From Eledone cirrhosa (taxonomy: Eukaryota), in the NCBI GenBank assembly GCA_964016885.1, contig OZ024752.1, positions 9,052,001-9,116,000 of the forward strand: a stretch of DNA of 64,000 nucleotides, given 5' to 3'. A program made the position numbers and the translations under genes. The notes below the pieces were generated by a model. The model made no database searches. It saw nothing but the letters and a program-made list of their open reading frames with translations, and was not told where the DNA came from. Of this stretch, positions 5,401-54,538 are shown piece after piece. Numbering within the stretch: position 1 is the first letter of the stretch; each line of letters starts with the position of its first letter.

Positions 5401-5715
5401 CAGTTCTGGCCTTTTTTGGATTCGCCAAGTTGACCATTCCACTGTCAATATTAATAGCAAATTTCCCTTTTTTAGTTGCTTTTTTGGCCTGTCCAATACT
5501 GTTGGGCCTCACGTTACACAATGGAAGCGGTCCCATATTAATGGTCTCTCTCAAATAATTGTATTCTCTCCAAGCACTAGAGTCGCACATGATCAAACTC
5601 GTTGGATCAAGATCAATCAAGTAAACATTGCACAGTTTGCGGGCTCTAGACAAGGCTACATAGGCCATACCGTCTGCAAAAACGCCAGTGCCCAAATCAA
5701 CGACTCCATCGACAC

Positions 5716-7850: not shown

Positions 7851-10800
7851 TTCACCGATGTATTGGATATCGACATTAGCTTTCCAGACATACAGAACAA
7901 CAGGATTGTAGTCATTGATGCACTCTTCCCCTTGTTGTCTGTCAAGCTTGTACAACTTTTTGACAGCTCTACCTTTGTGTCGAGATTTTATACACTCGTT
8001 GACGCTAAGCAAATTGAAATTCCCGATAGGACGAGGAAATCCAAACCTGCATCGAGTGTAAAAACGACCACTCGAAAATATTTGCCTTTTGCAGGATCCA
8101 CTACAGACATGTCGTTGAAAACGCAACACCAAGTCTGACAAAACGGGGCTTTCTACATTGGACGACATGCGACATGTGATCATGGACTGTATAAACGTCT
8201 GAATAGCATACTTGTCGTCTCTGTCCATAATAGGGCCATCTTTAATCCATAATTTCATGTGAACATGCGGAGCACCTCTCATTTGGTATTCCAACCTCCA
8301 AAAAAAGTGCTCGACAATACCAAACGGAGAATTGGTATGTTTAACAACTTCTTTCATAAAGGTGGTGAACCTATGGTGAAAATGTTCGCTAACAGCCACC
8401 ACGTCATCCGCGCACAACTCATTGGTGCGTTTTCTAGAAATGTCTGGTATATCAGCATTCAACTTTTCCAGGAACTCTCTCAGATCAGGCCAAAAGTACT
8501 CTGCACAAGACAAAGTTAAGAACAAGTGGGCCGGGCCAAATTTCTCGTCCATAGCCATCAAGTCTGAACATTTTCTAGACCAAAACTGCTTGGAACCACG
8601 GACATTGGCCATCATCATATTTAAATTGCCCTCTAGGTGCCTGTCATTTTCATGAAGCCGCCTTCTAAACTCGCTTATAGTCATGCGGCTGTTTTTGGTG
8701 GTCTTCATGATGGCATATATACCAGAATCAATGCCTCTCTTGTCGGCTTTATCAAGACAAAACATGAGATATTGTATATCTCGCCGAAATCTAGAGTCGC
8801 TATGATTCAGTCTGTTTCTTATGAACATGTATGGCTTTACAGCGCCAAACGGTCTATTGTCCACGAAAATGCCAAACTGACCAGTTGGATAAAGACAAGG
8901 AAAGCACAACAACTCAAGTTTTTTATCATTGTCTGCAATGAAATCGCCTTCCACTCTTTTCATTTTGTACAAGGCCAAGTCAGTGTCTGCAGGGAGACAC
9001 GGATTCATGTCTTTAACAGTGTGATGCTCATAGGTAATGCCAGCATTCGATTTAAGTAAAAGATTATCGAATTTGGCATTATTAACTCCCGAGCACTCGA
9101 CAATGTTTTCATTTTCCGTATCGGCGTAGCGATTGATCTTAACATCGGCATACATTACATTGTTTGCTGCAAGCCAATCAAGTGCCTTCAATACTTTACT
9201 CATGTCTACCATTGAACGCCAGATAATTTGTTTCCGCGAAGGCAAGCTATCAACGACTATTTTAAGCATGTCGTCTTGAAGCGCAGGTAACGTATCCATG
9301 GTGCGGTTAATAGTTCCGTCCATAGGCAAAGGCAAGTGAATTGCAATTCCTTTAATAGCGGAAATGCATGCTGAAATATTGCCTTTGAATGAGTATGGCA
9401 CCAGTTTTATTACATTGACGAAACATTTGGCCCGTTGTACAAGTATTCGCTCATATGTATTAAGATCAGCAAGTTCTTTGGGAACGGCAGCAACGCCCAA
9501 GCCATTTATTGAGGCCATTGAAGGCACCCCACTGTTGCGCAAATGTGTAGTGCATGTTGTGCAGACTGTGCAAGGCAAAGAGTAGTTGGTAGTTATTGCA
9601 TCCTTTGCAACGGCCGTTTTAAAATATCTAGAGTTCCAATTATCCCAAACTTTTAGTTCCTTGCTATATTTGCGCAGTTTGCAGATATGACAATGTTGGA
9701 TTTTATAGTTGGTAATTTCAGATTGAAATCTTTGAACTTGATTACCATATTTATGAATGACATCTGCATCAGTGTCTTCGACATCATTGAAACCAGTGCA
9801 CATATTATTGAATTTAACTGCAATAGCACGCTCAATGTTGGCAACGTCTGTCAAATTCTCAAAGTTGGTCCAATCGCCATTGAAAACAGCTTCATTGTAC
9901 TTGTTGAGCCAAATACATAAGGACCGAACTTTATAAATTTTCCTCAGCAATGTGCGCAACTTTGGCGAGTGAACTGCTATGGATTTTAAAAAGCCAAATT
10001 CACTGGTGCAGCCAGTTTGACCGATGCAGTGCTGATCATTATCATGAGTAACATTGCAAAACTCATATTTCTCGATCAACTGCCTTATTTCAGCAACTGT
10101 CATATCGGGATTGAGTTTTGGAAGTTTATCATCAATTCTTTGGCACAAAGTTAGACGAGCAGCTGAGTCATTTGGACATGTATCTAATATGGAAGACCCG
10201 CAAGGTCTAACCAAACATTTAGACACATCATTATCATCATTCTGCTCGTCAGCATTAGCCATGTCATTCACAATGTTGTCTGTCTCCTCATTATTGATAA
10301 CGACTATTCGGACTTTCTCAACGGACTGATTTTTAAACTCATCCATTTTCATGTACTTTGCAGTGCTCTTGTCAAAATTAGGAAGCTCATTGGTGGAACT
10401 GTGATAATGTTGATTTCCCCAATAATGCAACAAACCGTTAGCATTGACCTTTTCCATCAATGTATGCACAGCTTTAACATTTATTTTTAATTGAGCATAC
10501 ACAAAATCTCGCATCCCAACAGATCTGGAGAACACACTCAGCACGTGACTATGTGCGTCGTTGCGAAGATTGGTATCTGTTATTGTCTTTTTATATGACT
10601 TAACAAATTGGGACATCAAGATCTGATGCTGCATCCGGAAGTCAAACATTTTATTTAGTTTCTTTATTTGATACAAAGACCGCTTATGAAATTTTTTTTT
10701 ATAGTATGTTTTCTCATAAGACTGTATATTATCTTTATGGTGAATTTTATACATAACCTTTGTTTGTAATACTTTGTCTTGATTTGCAGATCTGTACTTG

Positions 10801-11225
10801 GTCTGCTCTTTAGCCAACTCGGTACGTTTAGAAGCTCTACGCTCGGCTTGCTTTTGAGATATAATAGCTGAATTTGCAGATCTATACTTGGCCTGCTTGT
10901 TTGCCAACTCATACCGTTTTGAACATCTATACTTGGCCTGTTTTTGTGTTAATTTAGCAAAATTCACAGCTCTATAATCGGCCTGTTTTTGTCTCAACTT
11001 CTCCCGATTCCGCATCCGGTAAGCTGCTTTCACATCCAATTTAATACGCCCATCTAGATTATTAGCACAGGAATGTGAACAAGCTTGTGGGACCGCATCA
11101 TTGTAAGTATATGAACTGCCTGCAACATCAAGACCCAATTCACAAGTGCAGCGTTGCTCATTCACATCGGCAGTGGGGACACCAAAATCAGTGACAGGTC
11201 TCGATTCACTCGCGAGATACATCAC
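7734..11225 (-). pseudogene. Helitron A N-terminus and Rep (HUH endonuclease) domain
   Basis: FLTLSCAE (motif I), EYQMRGAPHVHMKLW (HUH motif II), DYNP..NVDIQYI; motif III YVTSYQTK lies in the next frame at ~7850-7825, continuous with ORF 5716-7734; N-terminal ~15-aa KQAKYR repeats. Confidence 0.85.
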
Positions 11226-11253
11226 AGCTACACTATATATTTAAACATATATA

Positions 11254-18754: not shown

Positions 18755-18934
18755 TTACACGGCGTAAAATTTTCAAGTCCACTTTTTGCAATACCTTGTA
18801 AGTTGGAAACTTTCCATGCTGAACTCCAATCATTAGAGTTCTGTGTAGAGTATTTCCTTTTATTTGAAATGCACTCATGCCTGTTGGTCCACATATTATG
18901 ACAGGAGTTCCATTAGATAACTTTCTTTTTATTT

Positions 18935-20113
18935 GCCACCAGGGCATCAAAAGTGGGACAAGTACAAAGGGGGGGGGGTGAGTTTACATGCAAAGGCGTC
19001 CTCAATATGGAGGAGGCAATAACAAGATATAAAAGTATAAAAATAAAATAAAATATAACAAAATAAATTTTGTAACAAAATCCTCAATAGGGAGGAGGCG
19101 CCTTGGGGGGGTCGCACACACCGCCGAAAAAAAGTGTGCAACCCTTCTCCTCAGGAGCACAGAGAGGGGGTGCTCCCTTGGTCTTTCATCTTCCTCACCT
19201 ATAGTCTGATGTAGAGTGAAGGCCTATTCACATGGGCCATTCTCGCCACTTTCACCCATCTTTCATAATAACGGCTGGGGTGCAGCACCTCTCTCCATCC
19301 TGATCCTTCTTCCGAAATGATATCGGAAGAAACGGACCAGTTGTTGGCCAGAGAGAAAGATGTCTGACCTCAGTCCTTTCAGACGCGTCCACCATACAAC
19401 CTCTATCGACATGGCTATTACGCACAGAAACACCGCCTCTCCTTCGTTTTTGAAGAGGGGAGGCGGCTTGATCGTTGAAGGTTTTCTTATTAAGTTGGGG
19501 ACAGACAGCCCTCAAGTGACCTCTGGTTCCACAGAGGTAACACGAGGGCCCGCTTACCCTCAACGGTAATGTTGATGAAAGTTTGATCATCCAGTATGAC
19601 GCGTTCAGGGATCTGGGCGATCCTTTCGGGCCTCATTTGAACTACAAGTTCGAGGCTCGTTCCACTGAACACGTCACCCAATGCCTTTCCCATGGACACC
19701 AGCGTGTCATCATCCAGGTTCAGGAAACCTGTCAAAACCCACCATATGTCCATAATCGGCAGGATGGTGTGGATTTTTATTTTTTGCGTCCTTCTACCCA
19801 TGTACGTAGGGTAGAAGGTGTATGCGGTGGATGTAATTGGTTTGATGGACAGTTTCACTGCTGTGTCCCTGTCATTCATGAGAATGGATAGACTCCCGTA
19901 GAGTCTATCTTTCTGAGTGAAAGTGATGTCTTTCATGACGTCTTTTAAAACCAGCTCTATCTCGCTCTGTGATGGTTGAGCTGGATTTTTGCTTTTATTC
20001 GAGATTGTCCTAAACATGACAATGTTTAGGAGTTTCTGGCTTTTTAGCCGGGGGGGGGGGGGGGGGGGGGGGTTGAAAATGTACCATTTTCCCCGTACAT
20101 TATGTATTTTTTT
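18935..20113 (-). mobile_element. L1/Tx1-like LINE, 3' part: rest of ORF1 (zinc knuckle) joined to the ORF2 C-terminus and 3'UTR (internally deleted)
   Basis: ITVEGKR..CYLCGTRGHLRAVCP CCHC knuckle; 3' region homologous to 44975-45400 (caatagggaggaggcgcc; AATAAA end). Confidence 0.65.
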
Positions 20114-20226
20114 ACCAAGGCTTCTTTCTACTGGTGAGTAAAAATCTTCCTGCACTTCTTGATAGAATCGTGTACCATTTTCCCCGTACATTATGTATTT
20201 TTTTGCCTAAAGGGTAGGGGGTGTAC
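20073..20226. repeat. Chimeric LINE-ORF1 / viral-NS1 repeat block (copy of 24004-24248)
   Basis: gtaccattttccccgtacattatgtatttttt at 20081 and 20172, separated by a ~59-nt piece identical to 24306-24365. Confidence 0.9.
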
Positions 20227-20342
20227 TCCTCAACTCAAAATTAAAAAAAAAAAAAAAATAAAATAATCACCAACCTCCCTCTCGGGAGGCTGGTGACTAC
20301 TTTTTCTTTATCATTTATTCAACAAAATATTACAAAATGTTT

Positions 20343-21989
20343 TCATGCATTTGATATTTCTTTCATTATTCTTCCGTATTTATTCCATCTTCCTGCTGTT
20401 CCTTTTTCGTCTTCTTCTTCTTCTTCGGTGTCAGAATACTGTCGTTTAATTGACCAGCTTCCAGAATCAGTTTCAGACCCCAATCTACTTGGTCTTTCAC
20501 GACATCTATCTTCGTTGGTTTGTTCGCTTGTAAGACGTTCGTATTCATCTAAAATTTTGGCTAGATCATCATCACTTGCACTATCATCAATAATTACAAA
20601 ATCTTGAAAGCAATATTCATAAATCAATATATTCCAGATTCCTGGATTAAGCTTCTTTTTAACATGCTTAAGAAATGGGGATGCACAATCAAAAACAAAT
20701 TCAGTATAACGTGTTATAAAAGCCTTCTTTTCATCGTAAGGAGCATTCTTATCAAAACGATTATTAGAAGTTATAATTAATGGTGTGCGATGCACAACCT
20801 GATCTGGTTTAAATTTAACGGATACCTCAGTATCTGTACCCTCTGACAGTTTTTTAAATGTTTGTAGTGTCTTCAATGTGAAGTTAGGTTCTTCAATTAA
20901 ACCTAATTCAACATTGATCAAATTCTGAAAAGGAAATGTACTCGTACCCTGAATAGTACTAACATGAGTGAACATATCACCAATTGATCTAGCAATCATA
21001 CTTTTACCAGTATTAGCTAATCCACGTAGTACCATTAAATTTCTTTTTGGGTCCTTCTGAGTTAATAATTCCCAAACACATTGCACAAATTCTTCAATGT
21101 CTATCTTCTGTGTCATTAAAATTGATTTGAAAACCTTCATTGAAACATCTGTACTCGCATATTTGATTGGATCGAATTCCCAGACCATATTCTCAAATTT
21201 CTGTTTGAATGGCATTGTTAACGTACGTAGCTTAACACATTCGAGGACTTTCTTCATGATGTTATCATACTGTGCGTGACTTAAAGCGCGCATAAAATTC
21301 TCGTTGTTCTGCCTATTTAACCAGTAAGATTTCATCGCTTGTTCGGATTTAAATGATTTGTTTGTGTAGATATAAGTCAAATAATTAAACAAATAAAGTG
21401 TTGTTCCGGACTTAGATTTAAAGCATGGTTCGTCGTTATCAATCTTACTTTTCTCTTTTTCGGTTTCTTTATGTACGTATGGTGCTTTAGGTATGTACTC
21501 TTTCTCACACCAATCACTGAATTCTCTGTTCAATTCATTCGCACCCTGAATCAGTAGTACTCTTGGTGGTTGACAGAAGTAATCAGCCATTGCACTCGGA
21601 AATTTTACATTTTGGGCATCTGGTATGTATCTTTTTAAATTCGTTGCCTTCTTGTATAGTATTCTTATATATTTCAAAACTTGGTTTTCTCCTGGTCTTA
21701 TTTCATCGTTCCATATTATGTGGAAATGGTTAAAAGTATTCCATTCCTTGTTACTGCAACCTGCTGCTTCTGCTTTGTGAAATATTACTGTGGCCTTATA
21801 TATCTTAATAAAATTTAATATCTTCTGATTACAATTAGTTTGTGCTCCGTTTTTCATTAATCCTGTTTCCACATTATGTTCGTTAACTTCTATTTCATCT
21901 TGTAGTATTGGTTCGCTATTGTACACCCACGAGAAATCATCTTCATTAATCCATGGGAATATTAGCATATACATCTTCCTCCCTCTCAC
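20343..21989 (-). CDS. NS1: Parvovirus-like NS1, EVE A1 (putative exon 2; open frame)
   Basis: HUH motif NHFHIIW, SF3 Walker A GLANTGKS, Walker B LIEE, motif C IITSNN; preceded by acceptor TTTTGTCATTACAG. Confidence 0.92.
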   Translation of the reverse strand: MRGRKMYMLIFPWINEDDFSWVYNSEPILQDEIEVNEHNVETGLMKNGAQTNCNQKILNFIKIYKATVIFHKAEAAGCSNKEWNTFNHFHIIWNDEIRPGENQVLKYIRILYKKATNLKRYIPDAQNVKFPSAMADYFCQPPRVLLIQGANELNREFSDWCEKEYIPKAPYVHKETEKEKSKIDNDEPCFKSKSGTTLYLFNYLTYIYTNKSFKSEQAMKSYWLNRQNNENFMRALSHAQYDNIMKKVLECVKLRTLTMPFKQKFENMVWEFDPIKYASTDVSMKVFKSILMTQKIDIEEFVQCVWELLTQKDPKRNLMVLRGLANTGKSMIARSIGDMFTHVSTIQGTSTFPFQNLINVELGLIEEPNFTLKTLQTFKKLSEGTDTEVSVKFKPDQVVHRTPLIITSNNRFDKNAPYDEKKAFITRYTEFVFDCASPFLKHVKKKLNPGIWNILIYEYCFQDFVIIDDSASDDDLAKILDEYERLTSEQTNEDRCRERPSRLGSETDSGSWSIKRQYSDTEEEEEDEKGTAGRWNKYGRIMKEISNA

Positions 21990-22022
21990 CTGTAATGACA
22001 AAATTTGTATAGTAATTATCCA

Positions 22023-23639
22023 TTAACGGTGAGCCACTTGTGCTGACCCGACTGCCATTGTAGTATAATTACGAATACCCATCGGCCATTTACATAGATG
22101 TGTCTTAGAAGAATTTTGTATGACGCCCTTGTTATTATTCCATGCTTGGAATCCTGCAGTCTGTGGACTACCCGAAATATATTCGAAGTCTATCTCAGAA
22201 TTATATGTTATCGTTATCATGAAACTTATTTTAGATGGGTTATCCCCAGAATCTAGTATCGGTATCGAATCTAATGTTGCTATTGGTGGAGGATTAGATG
22301 GGTTAATAGGCATTTGTGTTAAATGTGTTCTACCTATATTCTCTTCGTCTGACTCTTTGTTAATTCCTAAATCCTTACTCCATTTTCCCGTTTTTGTTGG
22401 CGCCCATAAATCATATTTACCATACGTATATGTATTAATGTCTGCTGGTAAACCATCGTTTATTTTAATTGTAGGTCCTTCGTATGTAGTATCATATGCA
22501 TAATAATTCATACAATTGAACCAACTAGGAGTTCTATTAATCCATTGATATCCAGCTGTCTCACCACTATATAAGAATGTTAAATCACCCGTATTCAAAA
22601 TACATAACAATTGTTGTGCGTTTAATGTCTGTGCTGTAGTTGTAGCTTTAGTGAATCCATTATATTCCCACCAATCCTTTCTACACTTTCTTGTTGTCTG
22701 TACATGACTTAACGATCCCTCTGCTCTTGTAACAGGAGCATTATGTTTAAAATTGTTATTAACATTCGGGATACTATATGTTGCTGTTGGAAACAAAGCA
22801 TACTTATTATCGACATAATGTATCATATATGGTCTTGTATTAAATGTTGTACTTGTTGTTGTTGTTCCTTGTACTGTACCTAATTCATCTGATAACGGTA
22901 CTATATTAGATATCTTATAACCACAAGATTTCACTCTAAAGTTATTACATGGTGACATATATGTTTCTAACTCTGCATTTGTCATGCTAGCTTTCAAATT
23001 ACCATATGGTATATACACTGATCTATGTTTAATTAATAACTTTACATATGCATCTGCTGCATCACTAGTAGTAATAAATGTAGCTTCGTCTTGTGGTGTA
23101 TCGAAACAGTTTACATAATGTATAAACGTTCTTGAAAATTTTTTACTTACTATAGGATTTTTATCTCCTATTCCTGGTGGTTGATCACCAGTTGCTAATG
23201 CTGCCGAACCTGGTGGTTGATCACCAGTTGCTAATGCTGCCGAACCTCCTAGAGCAGGTCCTACGTGTGGGTCTCCCATATCTACGTCTTCACTTTCTAT
23301 CCCACTATCTTGTGTTCCTCCGGCTTTTACTAAATCTTTATCCGATATATACTCCTCTCCCTTTTCAGCTTGTTCTTGTTCGGTTTTCCTTTTTTTATTA
23401 TATGGTGGCATTACCCAGTTCTTAGTTTTTATAATATTACTAACGACATACGATGTCAACCCTCCAACTTTATCAGAACACTCGATTAATTGTTTATCTG
23501 CTTCTAGTTCACTAATTTCATTAGTACCATAGGCTATATCGTGTTCTCTGCAACAATTATCCAAATCATTAACTGGTTCCCTCTCTAGATCTTTAGTATA
23601 AGGTCCACAGTAATTATAACCAGGTATATGTAAAGGCAT
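22023..23639 (-). CDS. Parvovirus-like capsid VP with N-terminal PLA2, EVE A1 (open frame)
   Basis: PGYNYCGP...PVNDLDNCCREHDIAY (parvoviral PLA2), KKRK NLS-like motif, densovirus-like capsid body; in-frame 36-bp duplication (GSAALATGDQPP x2). Confidence 0.9.
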   Translation of the reverse strand: MPLHIPGYNYCGPYTKDLEREPVNDLDNCCREHDIAYGTNEISELEADKQLIECSDKVGGLTSYVVSNIIKTKNWVMPPYNKKRKTEQEQAEKGEEYISDKDLVKAGGTQDSGIESEDVDMGDPHVGPALGGSAALATGDQPPGSAALATGDQPPGIGDKNPIVSKKFSRTFIHYVNCFDTPQDEATFITTSDAADAYVKLLIKHRSVYIPYGNLKASMTNAELETYMSPCNNFRVKSCGYKISNIVPLSDELGTVQGTTTTSTTFNTRPYMIHYVDNKYALFPTATYSIPNVNNNFKHNAPVTRAEGSLSHVQTTRKCRKDWWEYNGFTKATTTAQTLNAQQLLCILNTGDLTFLYSGETAGYQWINRTPSWFNCMNYYAYDTTYEGPTIKINDGLPADINTYTYGKYDLWAPTKTGKWSKDLGINKESDEENIGRTHLTQMPINPSNPPPIATLDSIPILDSGDNPSKISFMITITYNSEIDFEYISGSPQTAGFQAWNNNKGVIQNSSKTHLCKWPMGIRNYTTMAVGSAQVAHR

Positions 23640-23649
23640 GTCTACTCAC

Positions 23650-23703
23650 TTTTAACTTGCCGAGCATATCTGCATCACGTAGCTTCAAATCTTCGTAATT
23701 CAT
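23650..23703 (-). CDS. Putative NS1 leader exon 1 of EVE A1 (MNYEDLKLRDADMLGKLK)
   Basis: ATG plus 17 codons, then AAA|GTGAGT donor; phase 0 matches the acceptor at 21990; homologous exon in A2. Confidence 0.75.
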
Positions 23704-23779
23704 CTTTCTTTCTTAGTTGAGGGTTAGACGTCGTTCTCTCTGGGCTTCCAGTAAATTATGACGGTTATTTCTGGCGCCC

Positions 23780-23910
23780 AGGACTATTTATATCTTTCTT
23801 TTCCCACGTATCAGTATCCTATTACATCACGTGATCAGCACATGTCTGAACACGTTTTGTTGTAGAATACCACGTCATCAAATATATATCTCTTCTCTGA
23901 TTGGTCAATA
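23780..23910 (-). promoter_or_regulatory. Viral Pol II promoter of EVE A1
   Basis: TATAAATA (~23785-23792, minus strand), ATCACGTGAT E-box 23826-23835, TGACGTGG, CCAAT box (~23900); same set present in A2. Confidence 0.65.
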
Positions 23911-24003
23911 TATTGTCGCATAATGCACAGCACTTTTGGAGGGAGTCGAATGGTGGGAGGGAGGGAGCTGTCGGTATTTCGTAGAAATCAGCGGGGAGGT
24001 AAG

Positions 24004-24248
24004 CGTTGAAAATGTACCATTTTCCCCGTACATTATGTATTTTTTTACCAAGGCTTCTTTCTACTGGTGAGTAAAAATCTTCCTGCACTTCTTGATAGAA
24101 TCGTGTACCATTTTCCCCGTACATTATGTATTTTTACCAAGGCTTCTTTCTACTGGTGAGTAAAAATCTTCCTGCACTTCTTGATAGAATCGTGTACCAT
24201 TTTCCCCGTACATTATGTATTTTTTTGCCTAAAGGGTGGGGGGTGTAC
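24004..24248. repeat. Chimeric tandem repeat (91/89-bp units): LINE-ORF1 motif alternating with a viral NS1 piece
   Basis: Motif starts at 24014, 24105 and 24194; spacers identical to 24306-24365. Confidence 0.9.
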
Positions 24249-24299
24249 GATAATTACACCCCAGCAGTGCCAACCACTTTTAGAAAATATCGCTCCATT

Positions 24300-24773
24300 T
24301 TCTTTTACCAAGGCTTCTTTCTACTGGTGAGTAAAAATCTTCCTGCACTTCTTGATAGAATCGTGTTTTTGGTAGCGATTCTAGCGGGGTTGACATGTAT
24401 TTATTTTCTGTATAATCTTTTATGTAATCCCTCCATATCGTCAACCACATCATGGGATTCAGCTCCTTCTGACCCCCATTCTTTCAATTTAGGCATTGCT
24501 GAATTGGTATTGTAGATAAACATTCGAGCTTTTAAGGCACTTTCGTCCTGCATTACTCTGTCCCATGGGTTGGAGTTACCTGTACTTATGCATGGTGTCC
24601 TGTGGAGAATACGTTCTTGTTGGTGTTTTATATTTACATATGTCTCGGTTCCTTCTAATATGCATTTGGCTTCTTCAATGTTGATGTTCGTGAACCACAT
24701 CTCGTCTGTAAATATTAATGTCTTGTCTATACATGTTCCGAACGTGAAATTGTCGCTCGCCTGACACCTCATT
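24300..24773 (-). pseudogene. NS1 helicase C-terminal fragment, lineage B (variant 2)
   Basis: MRCQASDNFTFGTCIDKTLIFTDEMW...ISTGNSNPW is near-identical in protein to 25460-27070 but has many synonymous changes; frameshifted. Confidence 0.85.
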
Positions 24774-24880
24774 GGTTGCCAATGCTGGGGTGTAATTATC
24801 GTACACCCCCCCCACACCTATACGTATAGGTGGTGGGGGGGGGGGGGTGTACGATAATTACACCCCAGCATTGGCAACCA
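24773..24880. other. Parvoviral-type terminal hairpin (108 nt) at the downstream end of EVE B1
   Basis: tggttgccaatgctggggtgtaattatcgtacaccccccc / reverse complement, with central palindrome cacctatacgtataggtg; partial copies at ~24232-24278 and ~20211-20226. Confidence 0.8.
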
Positions 24881-25218
24881 CTTGTAGGAAATAATAGAGA
24901 ATAGAATAGAATAACAGAGGTAAACAATGGTGCTAGTGGTGCCTCCTCTAAGTTTTTCAACTTACCTCCCTTTACCAGTGAGAGAGTCTCAACACAATTC
25001 AATGCCGCAGGTGTCATGGCCGCCTATACCCTTATATATATACTATACTATCAAATATTATTTTCACTTTTCAATAAAGTAATTTAATATTTAATATATA
25101 TATATAATATATATAATATACTTACCGGCCGCCATCTTGTTTCACTGCCAGCGATTGTGTGTACATCTCTTATCTATCGGTCATCTCAAATAAACAAACA
25201 ACAAGGTATAATCAGATT

Positions 25219-27070
25219 TCAATCAGTATCTTTATTAGGAGTAAAGCTACACAAGTACATGTCATTGCCATGCTCTAGACAGCGTTGACCTGGTTCATTC
25301 GAATCATAACGGCACATCTTATATGGCGGTTCTGTTGACTGACGTAATTCATGACAGTCGTCGTCGTCATCATTCCAGTCTTCAAGATAGTCTCGCCAGT
25401 TCACGTTGTTATTCCCGTCAACCACTTCGTTCTCTGCATACGATGTAGATGCCACGCATTCATCTTGTCTCTGCATACGATGTAGATGCCACGCATTCAT
25501 CTTGTCTCTGCTTTTTATCGTCTGGTATTTCTATTTCAAGCTCTGTTGTACTGCTACTCCACCTTCTTTTGCCCAAGGTTCTTTCCACTGGTGAGTAGAA
25601 ATCCTCTTGAACTTCTTGGTAAAATCTCGTCTTTGGTAGTGCTTCTATAGGTGTGGACATGTATTTGTTCTCGCTGTAGTCTTTGATGTAGTCTCGCCAT
25701 ATTGTTAGCCACATCATGGGATTCAACTCTTTCTGTCCCCATTCTTTTAGTTTAGGCATAGCTGCATTCGTGTTATAAATAAACATACGCGCTCTTAACG
25801 CCCCCTCATCTTGCATCACTCTATCCCATGGATTCGAGTTGCCGGTGCTGATACAAGGCGTTCTGTGGAGAATACGTTCCTGCTGATGTTTGATATTCAC
25901 GTACGTTTCGGTCCCTTCGAGAATACATTTAGCCTCCTCGATATTGATGTTGGTAAACCACATCTCGTCCGTAAATATTAACGTTTTATCAATGCAAGTG
26001 CCAAAAGTGAAATTATCACTGGCCTGACATCTCATTCTCCCACAATTCATGAGTCCGTTTCTTATACTTCTTAACAGATAGCTCTTTCCGCTGTTGGGTT
26101 GGCCAGTAATGTGTAAGCTGTTTTTCTTGGGTAATATCTTGTGGCAGACATCAAACAGGTCCCTGCCAAACTTTACGTGGCTTATGCTGTGAAAAGCGCA
26201 CCAATGTTCATATATTGCCAAGCTTGTATTAACTGTCCAGTAACGCACACCATCGCTGCCCAACATTAGTTTCTTTTGCTGTATTTGTTCCCATATTGGT
26301 GTAATTCGATTCTCTATCTGTAATTGGGTTGAGGCGGGTTGAAGTAGTGATGAAAGATTAGGCGTATTCCTGTACACTGAATCCCATGCGTGTCCGTACT
26401 TGTCTTTGCCTATTGTACAGACGAAGTTGATGATGTCACCGAGGTCTGTAGAATTACATTTACTCATCAGATCCTTTACAAAGTTAAACTTGTTGCCACG
26501 TACTGTGTCATTTGTTTTAATCTTTGTAGTCGTGTCTTCAACGGGTATCGGTATCATCTCTTTCATCGTAATGGCTGATAACATCTTTCTTTGACTCATT
26601 GTTTTTATGTCGTTGCAAGCTATTACATCATACTTTTGCAAGTACTCCGCAAATCCTGCTGGTGATTCTATCTTTGCCGCCTTCATTTCGTATTGGTTCT
26701 TTGGGTCTTTCGTTTGTAGTATCTTTTTCAGTTTCAAGAAGCTGTGTTGATTCGTTAGGTGTGACGTATGCCATGTGATTATGTGAAAATGATCCACGTC
26801 ATCGCAGTGCTTAATTCGCGAGGGACCTTTGGGATGGTAGATAACTATTGATGTGAACGTGCAGAGTAATCTAAATAAGAGTGAGTGCTCCTCTTTAAAC
26901 GGTTTGTAATTAATTGTCTGAGATGGTGATTTGAAGAGGTCTTGTTCCGCCCACGTAAATTCGTTGGGCTCTTGCCACCTGTACACCCATGTGTAAGCTG
27001 TGGTTCCTTTGGTGTTTGTTGTATCGTTGAAGAACTCTTCATTGAATTTCTGTTTCTCCTTGTGATCCAT
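25219..27070 (-). pseudogene. NS1: Parvovirus-like NS1, EVE B1 (C-terminal frameshift)
   Basis: DHFHIITW HUH, GQPNSGKS Walker A, IFTDEM Walker B, ISTGN motif C; a 37-bp tandem duplication (25431-25504) shifts the tail into ORF 25219-25500. Confidence 0.9.
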
Positions 27071-27095
27071 GACTGCTCTGCTGTAAGATTTTAGC

Positions 27096-28855
27096 TTACT
27101 TGTTCACAAACTGCCCGCTTCTGTATTTAAAGGGACTGTCTTTATCGCCCACGTCCATAGTTCTCGCGTGCTGGGCGTTCTTAACTCTATGACCATGAAA
27201 ATGTCTGCCCGGATTGGTTACACTGTGTAGATCGTATCTATACTCTTGGTCTGTGTTGATTCTACGTGCTGCGTTTATATTGGTTGTTGCAATTATCTGT
27301 GGGTGGTTCAGTTGATCGTAATCAGCTTCGATGGTGAGGAAGTATTCAATTTCCATCTGAAACATTAATGTCTGTATTGCGTTATTTCCATTTACTTTCA
27401 CTGGCACGTTTATCAGTACCATATTTGGTGGGTCTTCTGACGTGTACAAAACGTTATTTATGAGTGTTCTGTCTGCCACGGTGTAGATTCCTCCTGTTGT
27501 TTCGTAGTCTCCCGCCACTGTCGTAGATTCTCTGATACATTGATAGTTCATACCCATTTCGTTGTACTCTGCCATTGCCACGTCTTCCATCCATCCCAGT
27601 CGTGTTATGTTTCTTGGGTTTTTATAGTCTAGCCATTCAGCTCCCTTCTCGAAGCTTGTTCCCCCGTACGGTGCAGATGCCACGTTTATTCCTCCGTCAG
27701 TATTGATGTAGCTATTATTTTGTGCGTGAAAGTCGTTAGCGAACTTACCACAGTTTAGAATATTACCGTGTAGTATCACGTTTCCATTTCTTTCTGTGTT
27801 GGTTAACGGATGTGTTAATCTTGAATGATTTTTCCATTTATGCACGAATGTATCTCCTTGTCTCACTTCTTTGACGTCGCTTAACCCTCTCCAGTCGTGT
27901 AGTTTTATCATCGGTATAGTTACTTTTGAGTCAGCAAACGTAGTTCCCATGTCTGCCAGTCATGTAGTTTTCTCATTTCAACTGTTGCTTTATTATCAAC
28001 GAATGTGTGTCTTAGGTCTTGTATGACGTCTGCACTCGCCATGTAGAAATATTCGTATGTTGGTAATAATAGTTGGTTCATGCTTGTTGGATGTATGAGT
28101 TGGAACCCATCATTGGGTATGGAGGAGACGCCTCTTAGATTGTTGTATCCGATATATTTTCCTCTGTCTATGTATATTTGGAAATATGGTAACGGATTGT
28201 TGATAAATTGATCCTCTCTTCTCTGTACTATCCACTCTGAGCATGTAATATTCGATATTTGGAAACCCATTTCTTTGACGCGGTATGATGTAGCCATACT
28301 GAGTTGCACTTCCCATTCGATGGGTTTAACCCACGTAGTCATCCAGTATGGTACAAGATAGTCTTTTGATTTGCATACACCTCTCGTCATTTGATCTTTG
28401 ATATTGGGCTGATTATCTCCGGCCTGTTTAATCATCGTAAATACACCAGTGGATTCGTTCATATTGCTAGATTTCACTACATTTAGGAATTTCCTTGTGA
28501 AAGTGACCTCTCGTTGATAGGGGCCAGTCGGGGCAGGTATTTGGGAGGATGAACCATGTTGTGTACCGGACCATCCACCTCCTCCATCAGACCTCTCAGT
28601 CTCAGTATCCGTCTCCATCCCAGCCATAGTAGCAGCCCCACCAGTATCAACAGTATCGGTAGGAGTACCTCGAAAATATGAATCGAGTCCCAGATAATGC
28701 TTAGCTCCGATTGCCGCTGCTGCGCGTATACCTGTAGGTCCGGATTTAACCGCCTCTCCGATGAATTTCTTGTCAGCGAACCAGGTTCTGATGTCTTTGT
28801 TTCCATATGCGATGTCGTGTTCCTTTGCAGCCTGGTCTAGCCTATTGCGTGGTAC
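27096..28855 (-). pseudogene. Capsid VP of EVE B1 with PLA2 remnant; chimeric and frameshifted at ~27950
   Basis: Frame of ORF 27920-28627 extends upstream as VPRNRLDQAAKEHDIAYG (PLA2 catalytic helix); Gly-rich GGGGWSG; start codon and Ca-binding loop missing. Confidence 0.85.
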
Positions 28856-28917
28856 CCAATATTTGATGGTCCTGGTTCCTCCTCGGGCGGCTTCTTCCGT
28901 TTGCGACTACTCGGCAT
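28856..28917 (-). CDS. Putative NS1 leader exon of EVE B1 (MPSSRKRKKPPEEEPGPSNIG)
   Basis: Follows TATA (CTATATAA ~28945-28952); ends GG|GTAC in phase 2, matching acceptor ATCTTACAG|C AGA GCA GTC ATG at 27081; donor is weak, possibly a deletion junction. Confidence 0.45.
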
Positions 28918-29109
28918 ACTGATGGTTTCATGATTTTTTTCTTATTATATAGGCTGATTTGAGGTAACTATCATACCACATCGCTGTCGGCGGTCTGAAA
29001 TACTATACCGGGCACCTCTTCTACCAGTGTGATCAATGGTCAGCAGTGATTATCCCATTCCCACACCATCGGCTTATTATTACATTGTATTATAGACGAA
29101 AGGGGTGGG

Positions 29110-29480
29110 AATGTATTTTTTTGCCTCTGCCTGTAGCTCCTTCGCTTTGGTTATATCTACTGGCAGATAGTCGAGGGTTTTCCTTGTTTGTGTTGCTGTT
29201 GTTGTTATCACAGTTATTGGTCTTCTTGTTGTTGTTATTGTTATTGGTGTTGTTTTCGTCCGTAGCATTGTTGTTGTTGTTGCTGGTGCCGCTGGTTCTT
29301 TGGTTTGTTGCCAAGTTGTTGGTCAGCAGGTGGAGAAAATCCTTCTTCTGGCTGACCTTTGTTTTTGACCTCTGCTACTGTGACAGTGGCAAGCTGTGAG
29401 CTTATCTTCCCCTTTCCTCCTTCGAATTTTGGTGAAGAAGCTTCAGCCATTTTACAAAAAAATGTTAACTTTTCAAAAAA
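29110..29480 (-). repeat. Duplicated 5' part of the L1/Tx1-like LINE ORF1
   Basis: Near-identical to 33295-33660 (MAEASSPKFEGG...(CAA)n...ELQAEAKKY). Confidence 0.9.
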
Positions 29481-29603
29481 TAAAAAAAAAACTACCAACC
29501 GACCTCCCGGCCGGTTGGTAGTTAATTTTATTATTGCAAAGCTTCTTTTTTTTTTTAATTCAATATTTTATTTCACAAAATTATATAATGAAGACATGCA
29601 AAA

Positions 29604-31278
29604 TTATAAATTCTCACAAGCAGAGAGAGGTGATAAATCTTGACCATGAGGATCTTCACCCATCAGTTTTCTGTATTTTCTCCATCTGGAGCCACGAGTA
29701 CAGTTTTCTTTGTCTTCGTCATTTTCGTCGAGGTGCACAGTGTCCCCGCTTCGACAAGGAGACGGAGTCCGTAGTCTATCTGATCGTTTTCTTTTCTCTC
29801 TTTGGAGTCGCTCGTATTCTTCTGTAATAGTTAATAGGTTATCATCGGAAGATGAACTGTCATCGTTAACTAAATCTGAGAAGCAATCAATGTTCATAGA
29901 ATAAGATATTCCAAACATGAGGATTAATCTTTTTTTTTACAAATTGTAGAAAGGGAGACGAAGTATTAAATAGATACTCATTGTATCTTGTTACAAACGC
30001 TAGCCGTTCAGCTATTGGCGCATTTTGGTCAAATTTATTATTCGAAGTGATAATTAACGGTGTTCTGTGTACAACTTGGTCTAATTTGAATTTTACTGAA
30101 ACTTCAGTATCAGTCCCTTCAGCTAATTTCTTAAAAGTTTGCAGTGATTCTAATGTAAAGTTAGGTTCTTCGATTAACCCAATTTCAACGTTAATGAGGT
30201 TCTGAAATGGGAAACTGCTAGTTCCCTGTACCGTACTGACGTGTGTGAACATATCAGCGATTGATCGGGCTATCATTGACTTTCCCGTGTTCGGTAGCCC
30301 ACGTAGCACAAGTAGATTTGTTTTTGTTTTTTTTTTGGTTAGAAGTTGCCATACGTTCCTTACAAAAGTTTCTTCGTCTATGTCTTGTGTCATTAGAATT
30401 GATTTAATAACTTGAAGAGACGGTTCAGTTTGTAAATAAATTCTGTTGTTATTTTCAGTTGTGTACGAATCCCAATTCATACTTTCAAATTTTTCCTTGA
30501 ATGGCATTATCAATGTCTTCAATTTCATGCATTCAAGTACTTTTTTCATTACTGTATCGTACATAGCGTGGCTTATAGCTCTCATAAAGTTTTCGTTGTT
30601 AGGTCTATTTAACCAGTGACTTTTCATATCTTGTTCAGATTTGAATTTTCGGCTGGTGAAAATATAAGTCAGATAGTTGAACAACGTCATTGTTGTGCCG
30701 TTTCTCGTTTTAAATGTTGCTTCTTCTGAATTAATATTGTTATTTGCTTCGTCTTTCTTAGGACTATTTACTGGTTTCATTCTGTATTCTTCTTGACACC
30801 ACATTGAAAATTCGGCGTTTATTTTACTGCGTCCCTCGAATAATAGATATCGAGGTGCTTGGCAAAAGTAATTCGCCATACTGCTCGGAAAACGTACTCT
30901 TTGGCAATCGGGTATGAATTTAACTAGTTTAGTTGCTTTCTTATATAGTTGTCGTATGTATTTAAGTCTTTGGTCTTCTCCGGGTCTTATTTCATTGTTC
31001 CATATTATATGGAAATGGTTCTGAGTGTTCCATTCTTTTCTGGTGCATACTTGTGTTTCTGCAGGATGATATATCACCGTTGCTCCGTTGATAGCTGCGA
31101 ATTCTATGATCTTGGCGTTTGAGGATATTTGTGATTGGCTTTTACGGTTTTGTGTTTCTGTTTCGTAGTCATTACATACGTTAATGTCATATGTGTATGG
31201 CGTTTCGTCTTCGTACCATACAAAATCGTCCTTCTCTATCCATGGGTATATTATCATATACATTTTTTTACCGGTATT
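29604..31278 (-). pseudogene. NS1: Parvovirus-like NS1, EVE A2 (exon 2; frameshift at ~29887)
   Basis: NHFHIIW, GLPNTGKS, LIEE, IITSNN; collinear with A1; a 4-nt duplication (CATTGATTGC) moves the tail into ORF 29604-29918; acceptor TTTCCATTTTTGCAG at 31279. Confidence 0.9.
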
Positions 31279-31316
31279 CTGCAAAAATGGAAAGAGGTTA
31301 TTTTTGTAATATTACT

Positions 31317-32894
31317 TTAACGATGTGCTTGTCTGGTTTTACCCACTCTCGTTATTTCATAGTTACGTAAACCTTGCGGCCATTTGCATAAATTAGTTTT
31401 AGCAGAGTTAGCTATTAAGTTAGTATCGCTACAGTAACACATCCATCCCATATATTGAGGACTACCCGAAATGTATTCGAAATCTATTTCTGAGTGATAC
31501 GTAACTGTTATCATGAAAGATATTTTAGCCGCTTGATTTTGTGAATCGAGTATAGGTACTGAATCTAGTGTACATATAGGAGGTGGATTAGATGGATTTA
31601 TTGGGAATTGTGTTAAGTGTGATCTGCCCGTGTTTTCTTCTTCTACGTGACTATCTACAGCTAAATCCTTACTCCATTTACCGTTAGCTGTTGGTGCCCA
31701 CATACTTTTTTTAGCTCCAGAGTATGTGTTAATTTCTGTAGGCAACCCGTTAGTAGATAAAATTGTTGGTGGTTCGAAAGTAGTATTGAATGCGCTATAA
31801 CCCATCATATTGAACCAGCTTGGTGTTCTGTTTACCCATGTATATCCAGCAGTATCGCCCGCATATATGAAATTGAAGCTACCTGTGTTTAAATACGACA
31901 GAATTTCTTCTGCTGGTAATTCTTGATCTGTAGCTGTTGCAGCTTTGTTTCCCTGCCATAACCACCAGTCATGTCTTACTAATCTGCTTGTTTCCAATGT
32001 TTTAAGTTTACCCTCATCTCTAGTTACTGGTATATTATGTGTCCAGTTACTGTTTAATTGATTTAATTCGTATGTTCTGTTTGGAAACAATGCATATTTG
32101 TTATCTACGTAGTGTATCATCCATGGTCTAGTGTTAAATGTTGTATTTGTTGTTGTTGTGTTTTGTAACGTTCCTAATTCGTCGGTTAACGGTATTATAT
32201 TTGATATCTTGTATCCGCACGATTTTATTCTCATGTTACTAGCAGGTGTTAAGTATGTTTGTAGTTCTGCTACTGTCATGCTTGCTTTTAAGTCTGTATA
32301 TGGTATTAATGCTGCTTTGTGATCTATTCTTAATACTAAGTATTCCGTATCAAATTTTTTGTAATAGGCTTTATCGAAAGGTGTGTCGCTACAGTTAACG
32401 TAATGTATAAATGTTCTAGAGAACTTTTTGGTGACTATTGGATTTATATCTCCTATATCTGGCGGTTGATCCCCTTGTGCTAATGCTGCTGATCCCCCCG
32501 GAGCTGGCCCTACATGAGGATCCCCCATTGTTGGTGTTTCTGCTATTCCACTATCTTGTGATGTTACTGCGTTTAGTAAGTCTTTATCTGATATATCACA
32601 CAATTCTTCCTCGTTCTTATGAGATTGTTGTTCTTCTACTCTCCTTTTTTTTCCTGTAGGTGGCATTACCCAATTTTTCCCTCTTATTATATTTTTAACT
32701 AAGAACGCCGCTACTCCATCTACTTTTTCAGCACACTCTATAAGCTTATTATCAGCATCTATAATATCTACGTTATTATTTCCGTAACTTATATTGTGTT
32801 CTCTGCAGCAATTATCTAAATCATTTATCGTTATCTTATTTAGGTCTTTTGTATATGGTCCACAATAATTATACCCAGGAATATGTAAAGGCAT
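31317..32894 (-). CDS. Capsid VP with PLA2 region, EVE A2 (open frame)
   Basis: MPLHIPGYNYCGPYTKDL identical to the A1 start; collinear homology throughout; catalytic HD is HN. Confidence 0.9.
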   Translation of the reverse strand: MPLHIPGYNYCGPYTKDLNKITINDLDNCCREHNISYGNNNVDIIDADNKLIECAEKVDGVAAFLVKNIIRGKNWVMPPTGKKRRVEEQQSHKNEEELCDISDKDLLNAVTSQDSGIAETPTMGDPHVGPAPGGSAALAQGDQPPDIGDINPIVTKKFSRTFIHYVNCSDTPFDKAYYKKFDTEYLVLRIDHKAALIPYTDLKASMTVAELQTYLTPASNMRIKSCGYKISNIIPLTDELGTLQNTTTTNTTFNTRPWMIHYVDNKYALFPNRTYELNQLNSNWTHNIPVTRDEGKLKTLETSRLVRHDWWLWQGNKAATATDQELPAEEILSYLNTGSFNFIYAGDTAGYTWVNRTPSWFNMMGYSAFNTTFEPPTILSTNGLPTEINTYSGAKKSMWAPTANGKWSKDLAVDSHVEEENTGRSHLTQFPINPSNPPPICTLDSVPILDSQNQAAKISFMITVTYHSEIDFEYISGSPQYMGWMCYCSDTNLIANSAKTNLCKWPQGLRNYEITRVGKTRQAHR

Positions 32895-32904
32895 GATTAC
32901 TTAC

Positions 32905-32958
32905 GTTGAGTTCTGCCAACATTCCTGCATCTCTAGTTTTAAGATCTTCGTAACTCAT
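32905..32958 (-). CDS. Putative NS1 leader exon 1 of EVE A2 (MSYEDLKTRDAGMLAELN)
   Basis: 18 codons, then AAC|GTAAGT consensus donor 10 nt before the VP ATG; phase 0 with acceptor 31279. Confidence 0.78.
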
Positions 32959-33039
32959 GTTGATGGTTCTTGTATGTAGTAGTGGAGTAACGGCGTTCTT
33001 CTTAGCGTCTGCGTCTTCAACTGTTAAGATGCGCGCGCT

Positions 33040-33180
33040 TTAATATATTTATAGCAATTCTATGCTGACGTGTCAGTATATCACGTGATAATAACATGTT
33101 TGGACACGTATATCACTCATGATCGTAACGTGTTTGAACACGTTTCACTTATTTCTATATCTCTATTCTGATTGGTCGAT
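33040..33180 (-). promoter_or_regulatory. Viral Pol II promoter of EVE A2
   Basis: TATAAATA (~33046-33053), TGACGT, ATCACGTGAT 33080-33089, CCAAT (~33170). Confidence 0.65.
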
Positions 33181-33274
33181 TAATTTCTGCACAATGCACT
33201 GTTCTTTTGGCATAGGAGGAATGTAGGTCGGGAGGGAGGTGGAGGAATTCTAAGAATTTAGCGGATAGGCAATC

Positions 33275-33850
33275 GTACCATTTTCCCCGTACATTATGTA
33301 TTTTTTTGCCTCTGCCTATAGCTCCTTCGCTTTGGTTATATCTACTGGCAGATAGTCGAGGGTTTTCCTTGTTTGTGTTGCTGTTGTTGTTATCACAGTT
33401 ATTGGTCTTCTTGTTGTTGTTATTGGTGTTGTTTTCGTCCGTAGCATTGTTGTTGTTGTTGCCGGTGCCGCTGGTTCTTTGGTTTGTTGCCAAGTTGTTG
33501 GTCAGCAGGTGGAGAAAATCCTTCTTCTGGCTGACCTTTGTTTTTGACCTCTGCTACTGTGACAGTGGCAAGCTGTGAGCTTATCTTCCCCTTTCCTCCT
33601 TCGAATTTTGGTGAAGAAGCTTCAGCCATTTTACAAAAAATGTTAACTTTTCAAAAAAACTTTTGGTAACTATTTCGCCTAAAGGCGTAGAATATTTTGA
33701 GAGACTGACCAGATCAAAGTTTGACCTGGCAGTCCCGCTACAAAATGGTACAAAAATTAAAGTTTACAGTCAAGAATTTCTATAGAAATTTAAGCAAAAC
33801 TTACTCAGCAAGTTATACGCGTGTGTCCATCCCAGATAGATAGATCAGTC
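33275..33850 (-). mobile_element. L1/Tx1-like LINE 5' part (5'UTR and start of ORF1, ATG 33629)
   Basis: Reads ...ELxAEAKKYIMYGENGT, the same text that resumes at 20113-20073 (KKYIMYGENGTFST) and runs on into the zinc-knuckle ORF1. Confidence 0.65.
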
Positions 33851-34393: not shown

Positions 34394-35641
34394 CAGTGGT
34401 TCTTAACCTTTTTACTTGTTCGCACCCCATTCAATTCACCAGCCAGTTCTCGCACCCCCTTCCAGAATTGATGAAAAGCAATATTGATATCATAATCATA
34501 ATGTGTAAGTAACAAAACAATCATGTATTTAATTCTTTATTTACATAACTGACAACAAAATAATGCATTGCAGGATTACAAAAATCAAGATTACATTCAT
34601 ACTAGTAAAAAAACGAAATAACATTGTGCTTGTACTATGCATGGTGTGCTGTGAATTATTATGGCTGAGCGCCAAATTCAGTGACTTTGTTGCTGTTGCT
34701 TTCCATTTATGATGGCATCAAATCTTGGTGTCTTGGTGCTGAGTGCCACTCGCATGTCGTGTTGAGGATCCAGCCGATTTCGGCTCTTGGTTTTGATGTG
34801 AAGCAGACAGGAAAATCCAGTCTCGCAGAGGTAAGTAGTCGCGAAAGGCGTGAGCACAGTGAGAGCCTTCTTTGCCAGTGCAGGATACGTTTCCAACTGA
34901 GAAGCCCAGAAGTGCTCCAAGTGACCATCGGTAAACTCCATTTGCATTCCACGATTGTTTCTGAGTTCGATGAGATCTTCCTTGATGTTGCTATCATCAT
35001 CAACATCTTCCATATTATGCTTAAAAGGGTGCCGGATCCAGTCGTCACAGGGTTTTAGCTCTCCACACGAGAAGTAGTCATCAAATGAGGTGCACAGTAT
35101 CTGCAGATGTTCAATAATTTTTGAAACAAAATCTTGATGTAGGCAAGCATCCTCTGTTACTGTTTCTTCAAGGGAAGGAAAATTTGCCAAGTTCCCTTTC
35201 TTTAAACGCCTAATCCACAAAACAATTTTGTCTTTGAATGTAGCCAACTTCTCACTTGCAATCAAAATGTTCATCCCTCTTCCTTGTAGTGAGCGATTGA
35301 GCTCATTGAGTGCTGTGAACACATCAGCCAAATAGGCAAGCATTTGAATAAATTCAGGATCATCAAAATATCCAGCCAGTTCTTGTCCCAGTCCGTGGAG
35401 AAACTGCTGAATTTCTTCTCGCAATTCAAACATACGAGATAGCACACGCCCACGTGACAGCCACCTCACTTCGGTATGGTACAACAGCACAGTGTGTTCC
35501 TGACCCACTTCCTCACAAAATAACTGAAACAGTCGATGATTCAGAGCACGACCACGAATCATATTCACGATCTTCACACAAATCTCCAAAGTCTTTTTCA
35601 GGTATGGGGGCAATGTTTTTGCTGCAAGAGCCTGCCGGTGT
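34394..35641 (-). mobile_element. hAT (Charlie/Buster/ZBED5-like) transposon 3' half
   Basis: HRQALAAK, HTEVRWLSRG, LAYLADVF, PFATTYLCETGFS dimerisation motif; TIR cagtggttcttaacc at 34394 next to gtttagag. Confidence 0.88.
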
Positions 35642-36670
35642 TGAATTTATAGGGTTGCTTCGCCTCCTTTACATCTAGAGTTCTTGCGTGTTGCACGTTT
35701 TTCACCTCGTGACCGTGGAAATGTCTACCCGGATTGGTTAAACAATTTACGTCAAATCTAAAAGTCTTGTCAGCACATGTATTTATGGAGGCGTTATAAT
35801 TGCAAGTTTGCAAAACTTGCGGATGACATAATTGATCAAAATCTAAATCGAGCGTGAGAAAGTATTCAATTTCTAGCTGATACAGCAAAATTTGTTGAGA
35901 GTTGTTCCCGTTAACTTTGATTGGTACATTTATAAGTACCATCTCCGGGGGGTCCTTTGACGTGTAAAGCACGTTGTTGATAAGTGTACGATCTGCTACT
36001 GTGTATATCCCGCTTGCTGCTTCTGATCCTTCTTGGTCGGCTATTTTTCTCATTGGTTGATAGTTTGCCGCGTATTCGTTATGTTCTGCTAGATGCATAT
36101 TTTCCATCCACCCATATCTAGTGATTATTCTAGGTTTATTCCAATCTAACCATTTGGCGCCTCCTTCGTGCCAAAGAATGGTGCTGAGCATAGATTTATG
36201 CAACCATCTTGTTTAACGAGTGATCCTTCTCCAGCATGATGATTTTGCGACCATTTACCGTTATTTAAAATTGCTCCGTGTTGTATTACGTTTCCATCCC
36301 ATTCAGTATTTGTTAGTGGATGCGTCAATAGAGAATGATTTCTCCATCTATGCACGAATGTGTCACCTTGTCTCATTTCTTTTACTTCGGGCATATTACG
36401 CCAGTCATGTAGTTTGTACATTTCTATTGTTGATTTGTTATCTTTCGAAAACACTGCTCCATAATCTATTATTTGCCATGTACCAATATTCGTAATTTGG
36501 TAATAATAATTGTTTCATGTCCGTTGGATGAGTCATATTGAAACCGTCATTTGGGATTGAAGTAATGCCCCGTAGATTCTTATATCCAATATATTTTCCT
36601 CTATCAACGTAGATTTGAAAATAAGGCAAAGGATTATTTATGAATTGATCTTCTCCATTTTTAACTATCC
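35634..36670 (-). pseudogene. Lineage-B capsid VP fragment (another variant), frameshifted
   Basis: PYFQIYVDRGKYIGY, KLHDW..VKE..QGDTFVH, YTVADRTLINNVLYTS, NPGRHFHGH all match 27096-28627. Confidence 0.88.
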
Positions 36671-49399: not shown

Positions 49400-52132
<2,733 letters not shown>

Positions 52133-52135
<3 letters not shown>

Positions 52136-54150: not shown

Positions 54151-54233
<83 letters not shown>

Positions 54234-54305
54234 TATATATATATATACATACACATATATACAGATATATATATATATATATATATATATCTGTATATAT
54301 ATATA

Positions 54306-54340
<35 letters not shown>

Positions 54341-54451: not shown

Positions 54452-54538
<87 letters not shown>

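Follow-up and report, generated by a model that had tools for sequence, protein, structure and literature searches.

In a 64,000-nt stretch of the Eledone cirrhosa genome (assembly GCA_964016885.1, contig OZ024752.1, positions 9,052,001 to 9,116,000; hereafter the window, with positions counted from its first letter), a single copy of a long interspersed nuclear element (LINE) contains five parvoviral pieces, all on the same strand: two genomes of one type, A1 and A2, and a three-piece block of a second type, B. Read along the minus strand, the 5′ part of the LINE with a motif of its open reading frame 1 (ORF1) is followed by A2, a 370-bp re-copy, B pieces 1, 2 and 3, an alternation of motif, 58-bp insert, motif, insert and motif, A1, a 154-bp re-copy, a run of 23 C and the LINE remainder (Table 1). 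This is the structure that the initial annotation had described, and our comparisons recovered it with all its coordinates, including the end of the motif at 33275, the re-copies at 29480–29111 and 20226–20073, and the motif copies. As to its origin, we see about an even chance that the pieces were captured by repeated stall-and-switch DNA synthesis at the 23-nt G-run (G23 on the plus strand, C23 on the LINE strand), probably over at least two rounds, with several parvoviruses infecting the same germ-cell lineage.

The positions of the joints point to the run. LINE-to-insert joints precede C23 by 0–1 nt in A1, by 8 nt in A2 and in the short B inserts, and by 29 nt in B, in agreement with the earlier claim that the genomes begin within the same short LINE window. 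Re-entry points lie 16 to 390 nt upstream, with partial target duplications of ∼390, 16 and 154 bp, and the run itself was never copied twice. The joints carry 2–7 nt of microhomology, as judged by eye against the viral ends at other loci. Microhomology and templated inserts are features of the polymerase-theta repair route. Here, synthesis of the LINE-sense strand reaches the G-run's 3′ edge at the joints, the same side of the run that is used in the G-quadruplex (G4) polymerase-theta events of Caenorhabditis elegans dog-1, in which one junction lies at the 3′ edge of the G-run, events recur at one site and the block recurs in successive S-phases (PMC4654259). Two tiny palindromes of the native site (20073–20110) have the A2 and B joints at their loops; the 7-bp one occurs in 14 of 64 family copies, and hairpins at this site were predicted to fold no better than shuffled sequences (z = −0.2 and −1.0).

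That the motif is native to LINE ORF1 was borne out by the family: it was present in all 54 distinct other copies in which the site was located, nearly always followed by a C-tract, and intact copies read on through it into the C-tract and ORF1. Within the window, one motif copy ends at 33275 and the others lie at 24194, 24105, 24014, 20172 and 20081. An exact 31-mer of this variant had six matches in the 3-Gb genome, all within the window, so all six derive from one LINE copy, and the chimera has no retrotransposed copies elsewhere. No canonical G4 motif other than G23 occurs between 14052 and 52453 (38 kb), and G23 is the longest run among the family copies compared, with at most 19 nt in the 54 copies and at most 21 nt in 23 copies collected for their long runs.

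Under the stall-and-switch reading, a strand growing toward the G-run would stop just short of it, and the stalled end would pair by a few bases with single-stranded viral DNA and copy it. The new strand would then return to the chromosome 16–390 nt upstream; the approach would be duplicated and the run never, so that the barrier would persist and could act again. If the rounds were separate, their order would be A2, B and A1, the newest adjoining the run. The templates were presumably DNA rather than mRNA, because the inserts include hairpin and promoter DNA. The array would have been retained because it lies inside a one-strand transposon and virus cluster that would yield antisense PIWI-interacting RNAs (piRNAs). 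The link of the joints to the run is positional and comes from a single locus, and from it we infer the causal role.

Several observations weigh against such a role. Among 23 other copies with C16–C21, none showed an insertion or duplication at the motif (the search pattern omits copies with other downstream letters, the window's own included), and a long G-run by itself is insufficient for capture. Deletions removing the run and starting 12–59 nt before it were found in 3 of 43 copies (P ∼0.01, for an interval chosen post hoc) and in 0 of 23 further copies, leaving the hint unreplicated. On these mixed counts family-wide fragility of the C-run is doubtful; the initial proposal of template switching at a fragile G-run fits the geometry best, but may not reflect a property of the run. 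A G4 motif was found within 400 bp of only 2 of the 58 other viral blocks, ∼5 being expected from 0.52 per 10 kb, and G or C runs of ≥9 nt lay near 3 of the 58, so G4 was dropped as a general landing site. The run may, furthermore, have lengthened during or after the event. Finally, the worm outcome is a deletion of 50–300 bp that removes the G4, whereas here kilobases were captured by insertion, with upstream duplication, and the run was kept (PMC4654259).

At least two rounds are likely because the flanking copy of A1 includes joints that were made only by the capture of B, and two or more is the number we lean towards. That copy has one B insert, compared with two in the upstream copy; a pre-existing B cassette would be the simplest template for a flank that has the B joints and a single insert. 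A2 is not later than B, because the motif before A2 extends past the B joint. Separation of the rounds by host generations is doubtful. Internal clocks do not separate the events, since the duplications diverged alike: re-copy 29480–29111 differs from 33658–33296 by two substitutions and two indels in 362 aligned bp, and re-copy 20226–20073 has one substitution in 145 bp, with none in the 130 bp of the last unit. The main viral frames have no nonsense codon, and their frame breaks (none in A1, one frameshift in A2, several lesions in B) are compatible with A1 being the youngest, within chance. Co-infection is indicated because the B block itself mixes strains. Everything would be accounted for by capture in consecutive divisions of a single infected germ lineage, as a G4 block may persist through mitoses.

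Two NS searches of the genome returned 67 and 63 matches, most of which are covered by 46 ten-kb stretches; ∼7 weak loci, VP-only elements and 14 neighbouring stretches lie outside this set. Whether other endogenous viral elements (EVEs) sit at the same LINE position was a check proposed in the initial annotation, and the answer was negative: the motif was present in none of the 46 other viral stretches, and none of 140 LINE loci (∼108 distinct) had a virus within ∼1.5 kb. A family-wide NS1 target was rejected on these counts, the private variant of the window copy being a separate case. Host duplications were flagged at 2 of the 58 other viral blocks, both of them viral hairpin repeats, with low-complexity flanks masked and an apparent microsatellite duplication at L061 not counted. 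Six other loci join different viruses directly and in the same orientation (L062, L066, L071, L082, L083 and L092; five A–B joins and one A–A′ join). Mixed arrays are habitual in this genome, and what is special here is the re-entry of one host site.

A single complex repair event would require neither recurrence nor a special barrier: in a germ cell with several infections, one break by the run would have been healed at once by extending the same end again and again on viral templates. The equal divergence of the two duplications, the absence of nonsense codons, the strain mixture already present in the B block and the six directly joined loci all speak for it, as does a jumbled parvoviral EVE of shrimp that is bounded by a 591/590-bp host repeat (PMC8982415). 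After 3.8 kb of A1, however, the new strand would have had to copy anew three joints that it had itself just made, and one 90-bp unit would have had to be lost; A1 also has no frame break, unlike A2 and the B block. We regard a single event as unlikely, though deserving of serious weight. The shrimp element, the S97 IHHNV-EVE of Penaeus monodon, is the closest natural case in the searched literature, and its authors raise a comparison with adeno-associated virus (AAV) (PMC8982415). Both loci hold rearranged parvoviral DNA bounded by a large duplicated host stretch (∼390 bp here), but the shrimp element derives from one virus with inverted and jumbled fragments, whereas here five templates from two lineages are co-oriented and the host site was re-entered several times. 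No array of unrelated parvoviruses re-entering one site was found in the literature searched, which did not extend to the supplements, where such cases could be tabulated. Geometry does not separate the stall-and-switch reading from every rival, since on the opposite strand the joints also fit a nick beside the run, and on geometry alone NS1 stays compatible. The initial annotation had raised an NS1-dependent hotspot resembling AAVS1, at which NS1 would bind the C/G tract of this LINE copy, nick beside it and prime a duplication with insertion, regenerating the target each time. Rep nicking at AAVS1 does yield duplications and regenerate its site (PMC2761290), the duplications here, when read on the plus strand, have nearly the same starting point, as expected under nick priming, and no other copy has exactly this motif variant. 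With its C-run, the site is also among the LINE's best matches to viral hairpins: of 156 windows, 0 and 2 match the A-type stems as well, and 0 the B-right hairpin. This resemblance is low-complexity, however, and is gone without the run, when 35–144 of 157 windows are as good, and the A1 and A2 ends do not show it in the form that they have in the window. The likeness that had been noted between GTAC..CCCC and a viral hairpin arm did not hold up either: GTAC is private to the window copy (1 of 54 others), and the match is no better than chance once the C-run is set aside. The NS1 proteins of A and B are 22% identical and their termini unrelated, so two lineages would have to read one site, and neither the viral stretches nor the LINE loci elsewhere repeat the association. 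AAV targeting uses a tetranucleotide element shared with the viral end and a spaced nick site (PMC2900306, PMC2761290). The AAV2/AAVS1 system and this locus have in common a parvovirus, breaks at terminal hairpins, a partial target duplication and a regenerated target, but no tetranucleotide-repeat element is shared here beyond the C-run, unrelated viruses sit at one spot and the insertion is inherited through the germ line. Taken together, an NS1-directed site is quite improbable.

Within a single retrotransposition, a reverse transcriptase might have switched among LINE and viral RNAs, a mechanism proposed for mosquito EVEs (10.1101/127498); it would suit the co-orientation of all pieces with the LINE and the deletion of ORF2; L066 and L086 also abut relatives of the LINE in the same orientation. 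It is nevertheless very unlikely, as the inserts include arms of hairpins as well as promoter DNA lying upstream of the genes, which an mRNA would lack, the chimera has no second genomic copy, and only 2 of the 58 blocks directly abut this LINE under our filter. That the array is an artefact of assembly is more remote still. Short, nearly identical repeats abound in the region and none of the contigs listed spans the whole stretch, but the duplicates differ by substitutions and indels, the joints are unique, and depth is even over A1, B and A2 (∼6.5–8 on long contigs). Contigs of run X1, which probably stems from the assembly's own sample and is not independent support, bridge the A1-left and A2-right joints (23218–24042 and 29425–31333). 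Runs X5 and X6, from two studies and under another species label, contain a sequence ∼97% identical to A1 (window positions 20400–23970), the X5 version of which has 53 differences over 1613 bp; it lacks LINE joints and a 36-bp duplication that A1 carries in VP, and none of the joints listed there matches the array. The X5/X6 species barely shares the LINE at 95%. Run X4, a second sample from the same study, covers pieces of A2 and B and almost none of A1, with no contig joining across A1, and was not used as evidence. None of the runs listed as containing the sequence was of RNA.

Table 1. Features of the array-bearing LINE copy and of a nearby viral fragment, in minus-strand order
Position	Strand	Feature	Basis
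35619..36668	-	B-type VP fragment separate from the LINE, flanked by Helitron and hAT pieces	tblastn 58-77%; 66-77% nt
33275..33845	-	5′ untranslated region and ORF1 start of the putative Tx1-clade LINE, running to the motif and stopping 8 nt before the native C-run	Family copies genome-wide
29481..33274	-	Parvoviral genome A2, from the left-hairpin apex to a T-tract past the small right hairpin	Pfam PF08398, PF01057; hairpins compared with other loci
29111..29480	-	Re-copied LINE segment, ending 29 nt ahead of the C-run position	Comparison with 33658-33296
27956..29110	-	B piece 1: left end and N-terminal VP, with a deletion near the VP start relative to L095	tblastn/blastn against L095, L097, L071
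24773..27955	-	B piece 2: C-terminal VP, NS1 (27103-25463), 108-nt hairpin (24880-24773)	Hairpin z -14.6
24234..24772	-	B piece 3: NS fragment (79% nt to piece 2) and one hairpin arm (92%)	Sequence comparison
24005..24233	-	Three motifs separated by two 58-bp templated copies of the B NS fragment, the last motif with TTTTCAAC	Self-BLAST, 24300-24366 against 24132-24195 and 24040-24106
20227..24004	-	Parvoviral genome A1, from the hairpin apex to past the small right hairpin and T-tract	Pfam
20073..20226	-	A1 flanking duplication: re-copy of arm, motif, B insert and motif, including B-made joints	Self-comparison
20050..20072	+	G23 run (C23 on the LINE strand)	
19480..20049	-	Remaining LINE ORF1, to the zinc knuckle	Family copies, 96-97%
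18925..19476	-	ORF2 3′ end and 3′ untranslated region, fused to ORF1 by a ∼3.5-kb internal deletion	Family copy comparison

The two A genomes are 63% identical in NS. In A2, VP with its phospholipase A2 (PLA2) domain (32900–31320) precedes NS1 (31311–29890), which has its frameshift near 29890, and the hairpin fold has a z of −6.4. In A1, VP (23645–22026) precedes NS1 (22022–20346), and the 36-bp duplication in VP, at 23172–23209, is tandem and in frame. Both genomes begin in the left-hairpin loop and end in a T-tract ahead of the right terminal repeat; on the viral side, 5 of 12 retrieved hairpin copies are broken at the hairpin loop, three of them at other loci. For what had been called virus B1 and a B fragment, the B content was right, but B1 proved to be a join. 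Its two pieces overlap by ∼24 homologous codons near 27955, with only 50% amino-acid identity, and both match the same 72 bp of L095, L097 and L071; they come from two strains, because a young duplication could not have diverged to 50%. The fragment differs from B1 in turn (79% nt), and by sequence comparison the block may have been built from three B strains, with pieces 3 and 1 possibly from one. A B-right hairpin with GTACACCCC was found nowhere else in the genome, and its position in the array suggests a viral origin.

Elsewhere in the genome, young single-strain insertions (L061, L067 and L068) are inverted concatemers. One A-type strain, with a VP 62.4% identical to that of A1 at each place and free of stops, is present at four unlinked places (L061, L067, L068 and L076, on C998, C10, C14 and C5), reflecting either a very recent burst or partly unplaced duplicates. 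At L070 (6253–7533), an 80-bp piece of viral VP has expanded to more than 10 tandem copies.

Assignment to the parvoviruses is based on the SF3 helicase of NS1 (PF01057 at 61–66 bits, cut-off 20) and the PLA2 domain, which is also above its Pfam cut-off. Among solved capsids, that of Penaeus monodon metallodensovirus is nearest (6wh3; 56 residues, E = 8e-9). With this virus and Parvoviridae at large, the array shares the SF3 helicase in NS1, terminal hairpins, the ∼4-kb genome size and PLA2 in the A-type VP; it differs in that both lineages place VP ahead of NS, with the two on one strand, an order that recurs at many other A and B loci (L061–L120). By convention, NS comes before VP in parvovirus genomes that code on a single strand. 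The reversed order bears on genus placement, not on membership of Parvoviridae. Close protein relatives are unnamed, the sole named match being a 34% match to NS1 of an uncultured densovirus.

The host LINE, a putative member of the Tx1 clade, is abundant, its 5′ part giving 1532 and its 3′ part 1769 first-look candidates across the 3.0-Gb genome. Full-length family copies measure ∼5.5 kb, carry ORF1 with a zinc knuckle and an endonuclease–reverse transcriptase ORF2, the domains of which were assigned by eye, and sit in (TATC)n, often in tandem. In the same (TATC)n tracts the family is stacked head to tail with related subfamilies (L020, L055 and L121–L123). The zinc knuckle reads CYLCGTRGHLRAVC in family copies; in the window LINE, the Pfam zf-CCHC match is weak and below cut-off (E = 0.0067). 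As initially described, ORF1 continues beyond the array to its zinc knuckle, but it does not run on to an intact 3′ end: the copy is internally deleted, jumping from 19480 to 19476, and has lost ∼3.5 kb comprising the end of ORF1 and most of ORF2.

The array lies in a ∼130-kb cluster (∼8.965–9.098 Mb) in which 37 of 39 long ORFs, which are not independent of one another, are on the minus strand, as are all 18 Pfam-labelled ORFs upstream. Six further viral blocks, five on the minus strand and one on the plus strand, bring the viral sites of the cluster to seven. Such regional enrichment alone cannot place several inserts within 30 bp. Just upstream of the window, eight ankyrin-repeat ORFs stand in tandem on the cluster strand (L108–L110; C12, 9.022–9.052 Mb), and long Helitron Rep/PIF1 frames (1168, 711 and 320 amino acids) occupy the same strand at window positions 4811–11240. 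TA-rich microsatellite blocks (49400–52134 and 54053–54730), flanked by RT-PHD retroelements on opposite strands, form the end of the strand-biased region. Further clusters with a strand bias, in which transposon fragments are accompanied by several viral pieces and which likewise look like piRNA clusters, are present at C2:345.36–345.41 Mb, at C25:7.43–7.47 Mb and on C841.

In its one-strand arrangement of transposons and viruses, the cluster resembles a unidirectional piRNA cluster and may be a candidate small-RNA defence archive. The EVE-rich unidirectional piRNA clusters of Aedes aegypti likewise hold viral and transposon fragments densely on one strand, but their EVEs derive from RNA viruses and lie beside long terminal repeat elements, whereas DNA-virus genomes with hairpins are present here (10.1101/127498). 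The initial annotation had pictured viruses accumulating sequentially, like a memory array. Successive capture, in the order given above if the rounds were separate, is the part of this picture that fits; a build-up over many generations is unsupported, the duplications being equally diverged. It is accordingly improbable that the locus is a self-renewing, polarised capture site, that is, a G-quadruplex in a piRNA cluster that adds each new parvovirus by the run over host generations and so forms a time-ordered antiviral memory array.

The locus exposes two unnamed parvovirus lineages with a capsid-before-replicase order, in a genome where joins between unrelated parvoviruses recur at six other loci. 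Because its joints have hardly aged, the mechanism can be read base by base, which bears on the entry of DNA viruses into germ lines and on the crowding of viral pieces in piRNA clusters.

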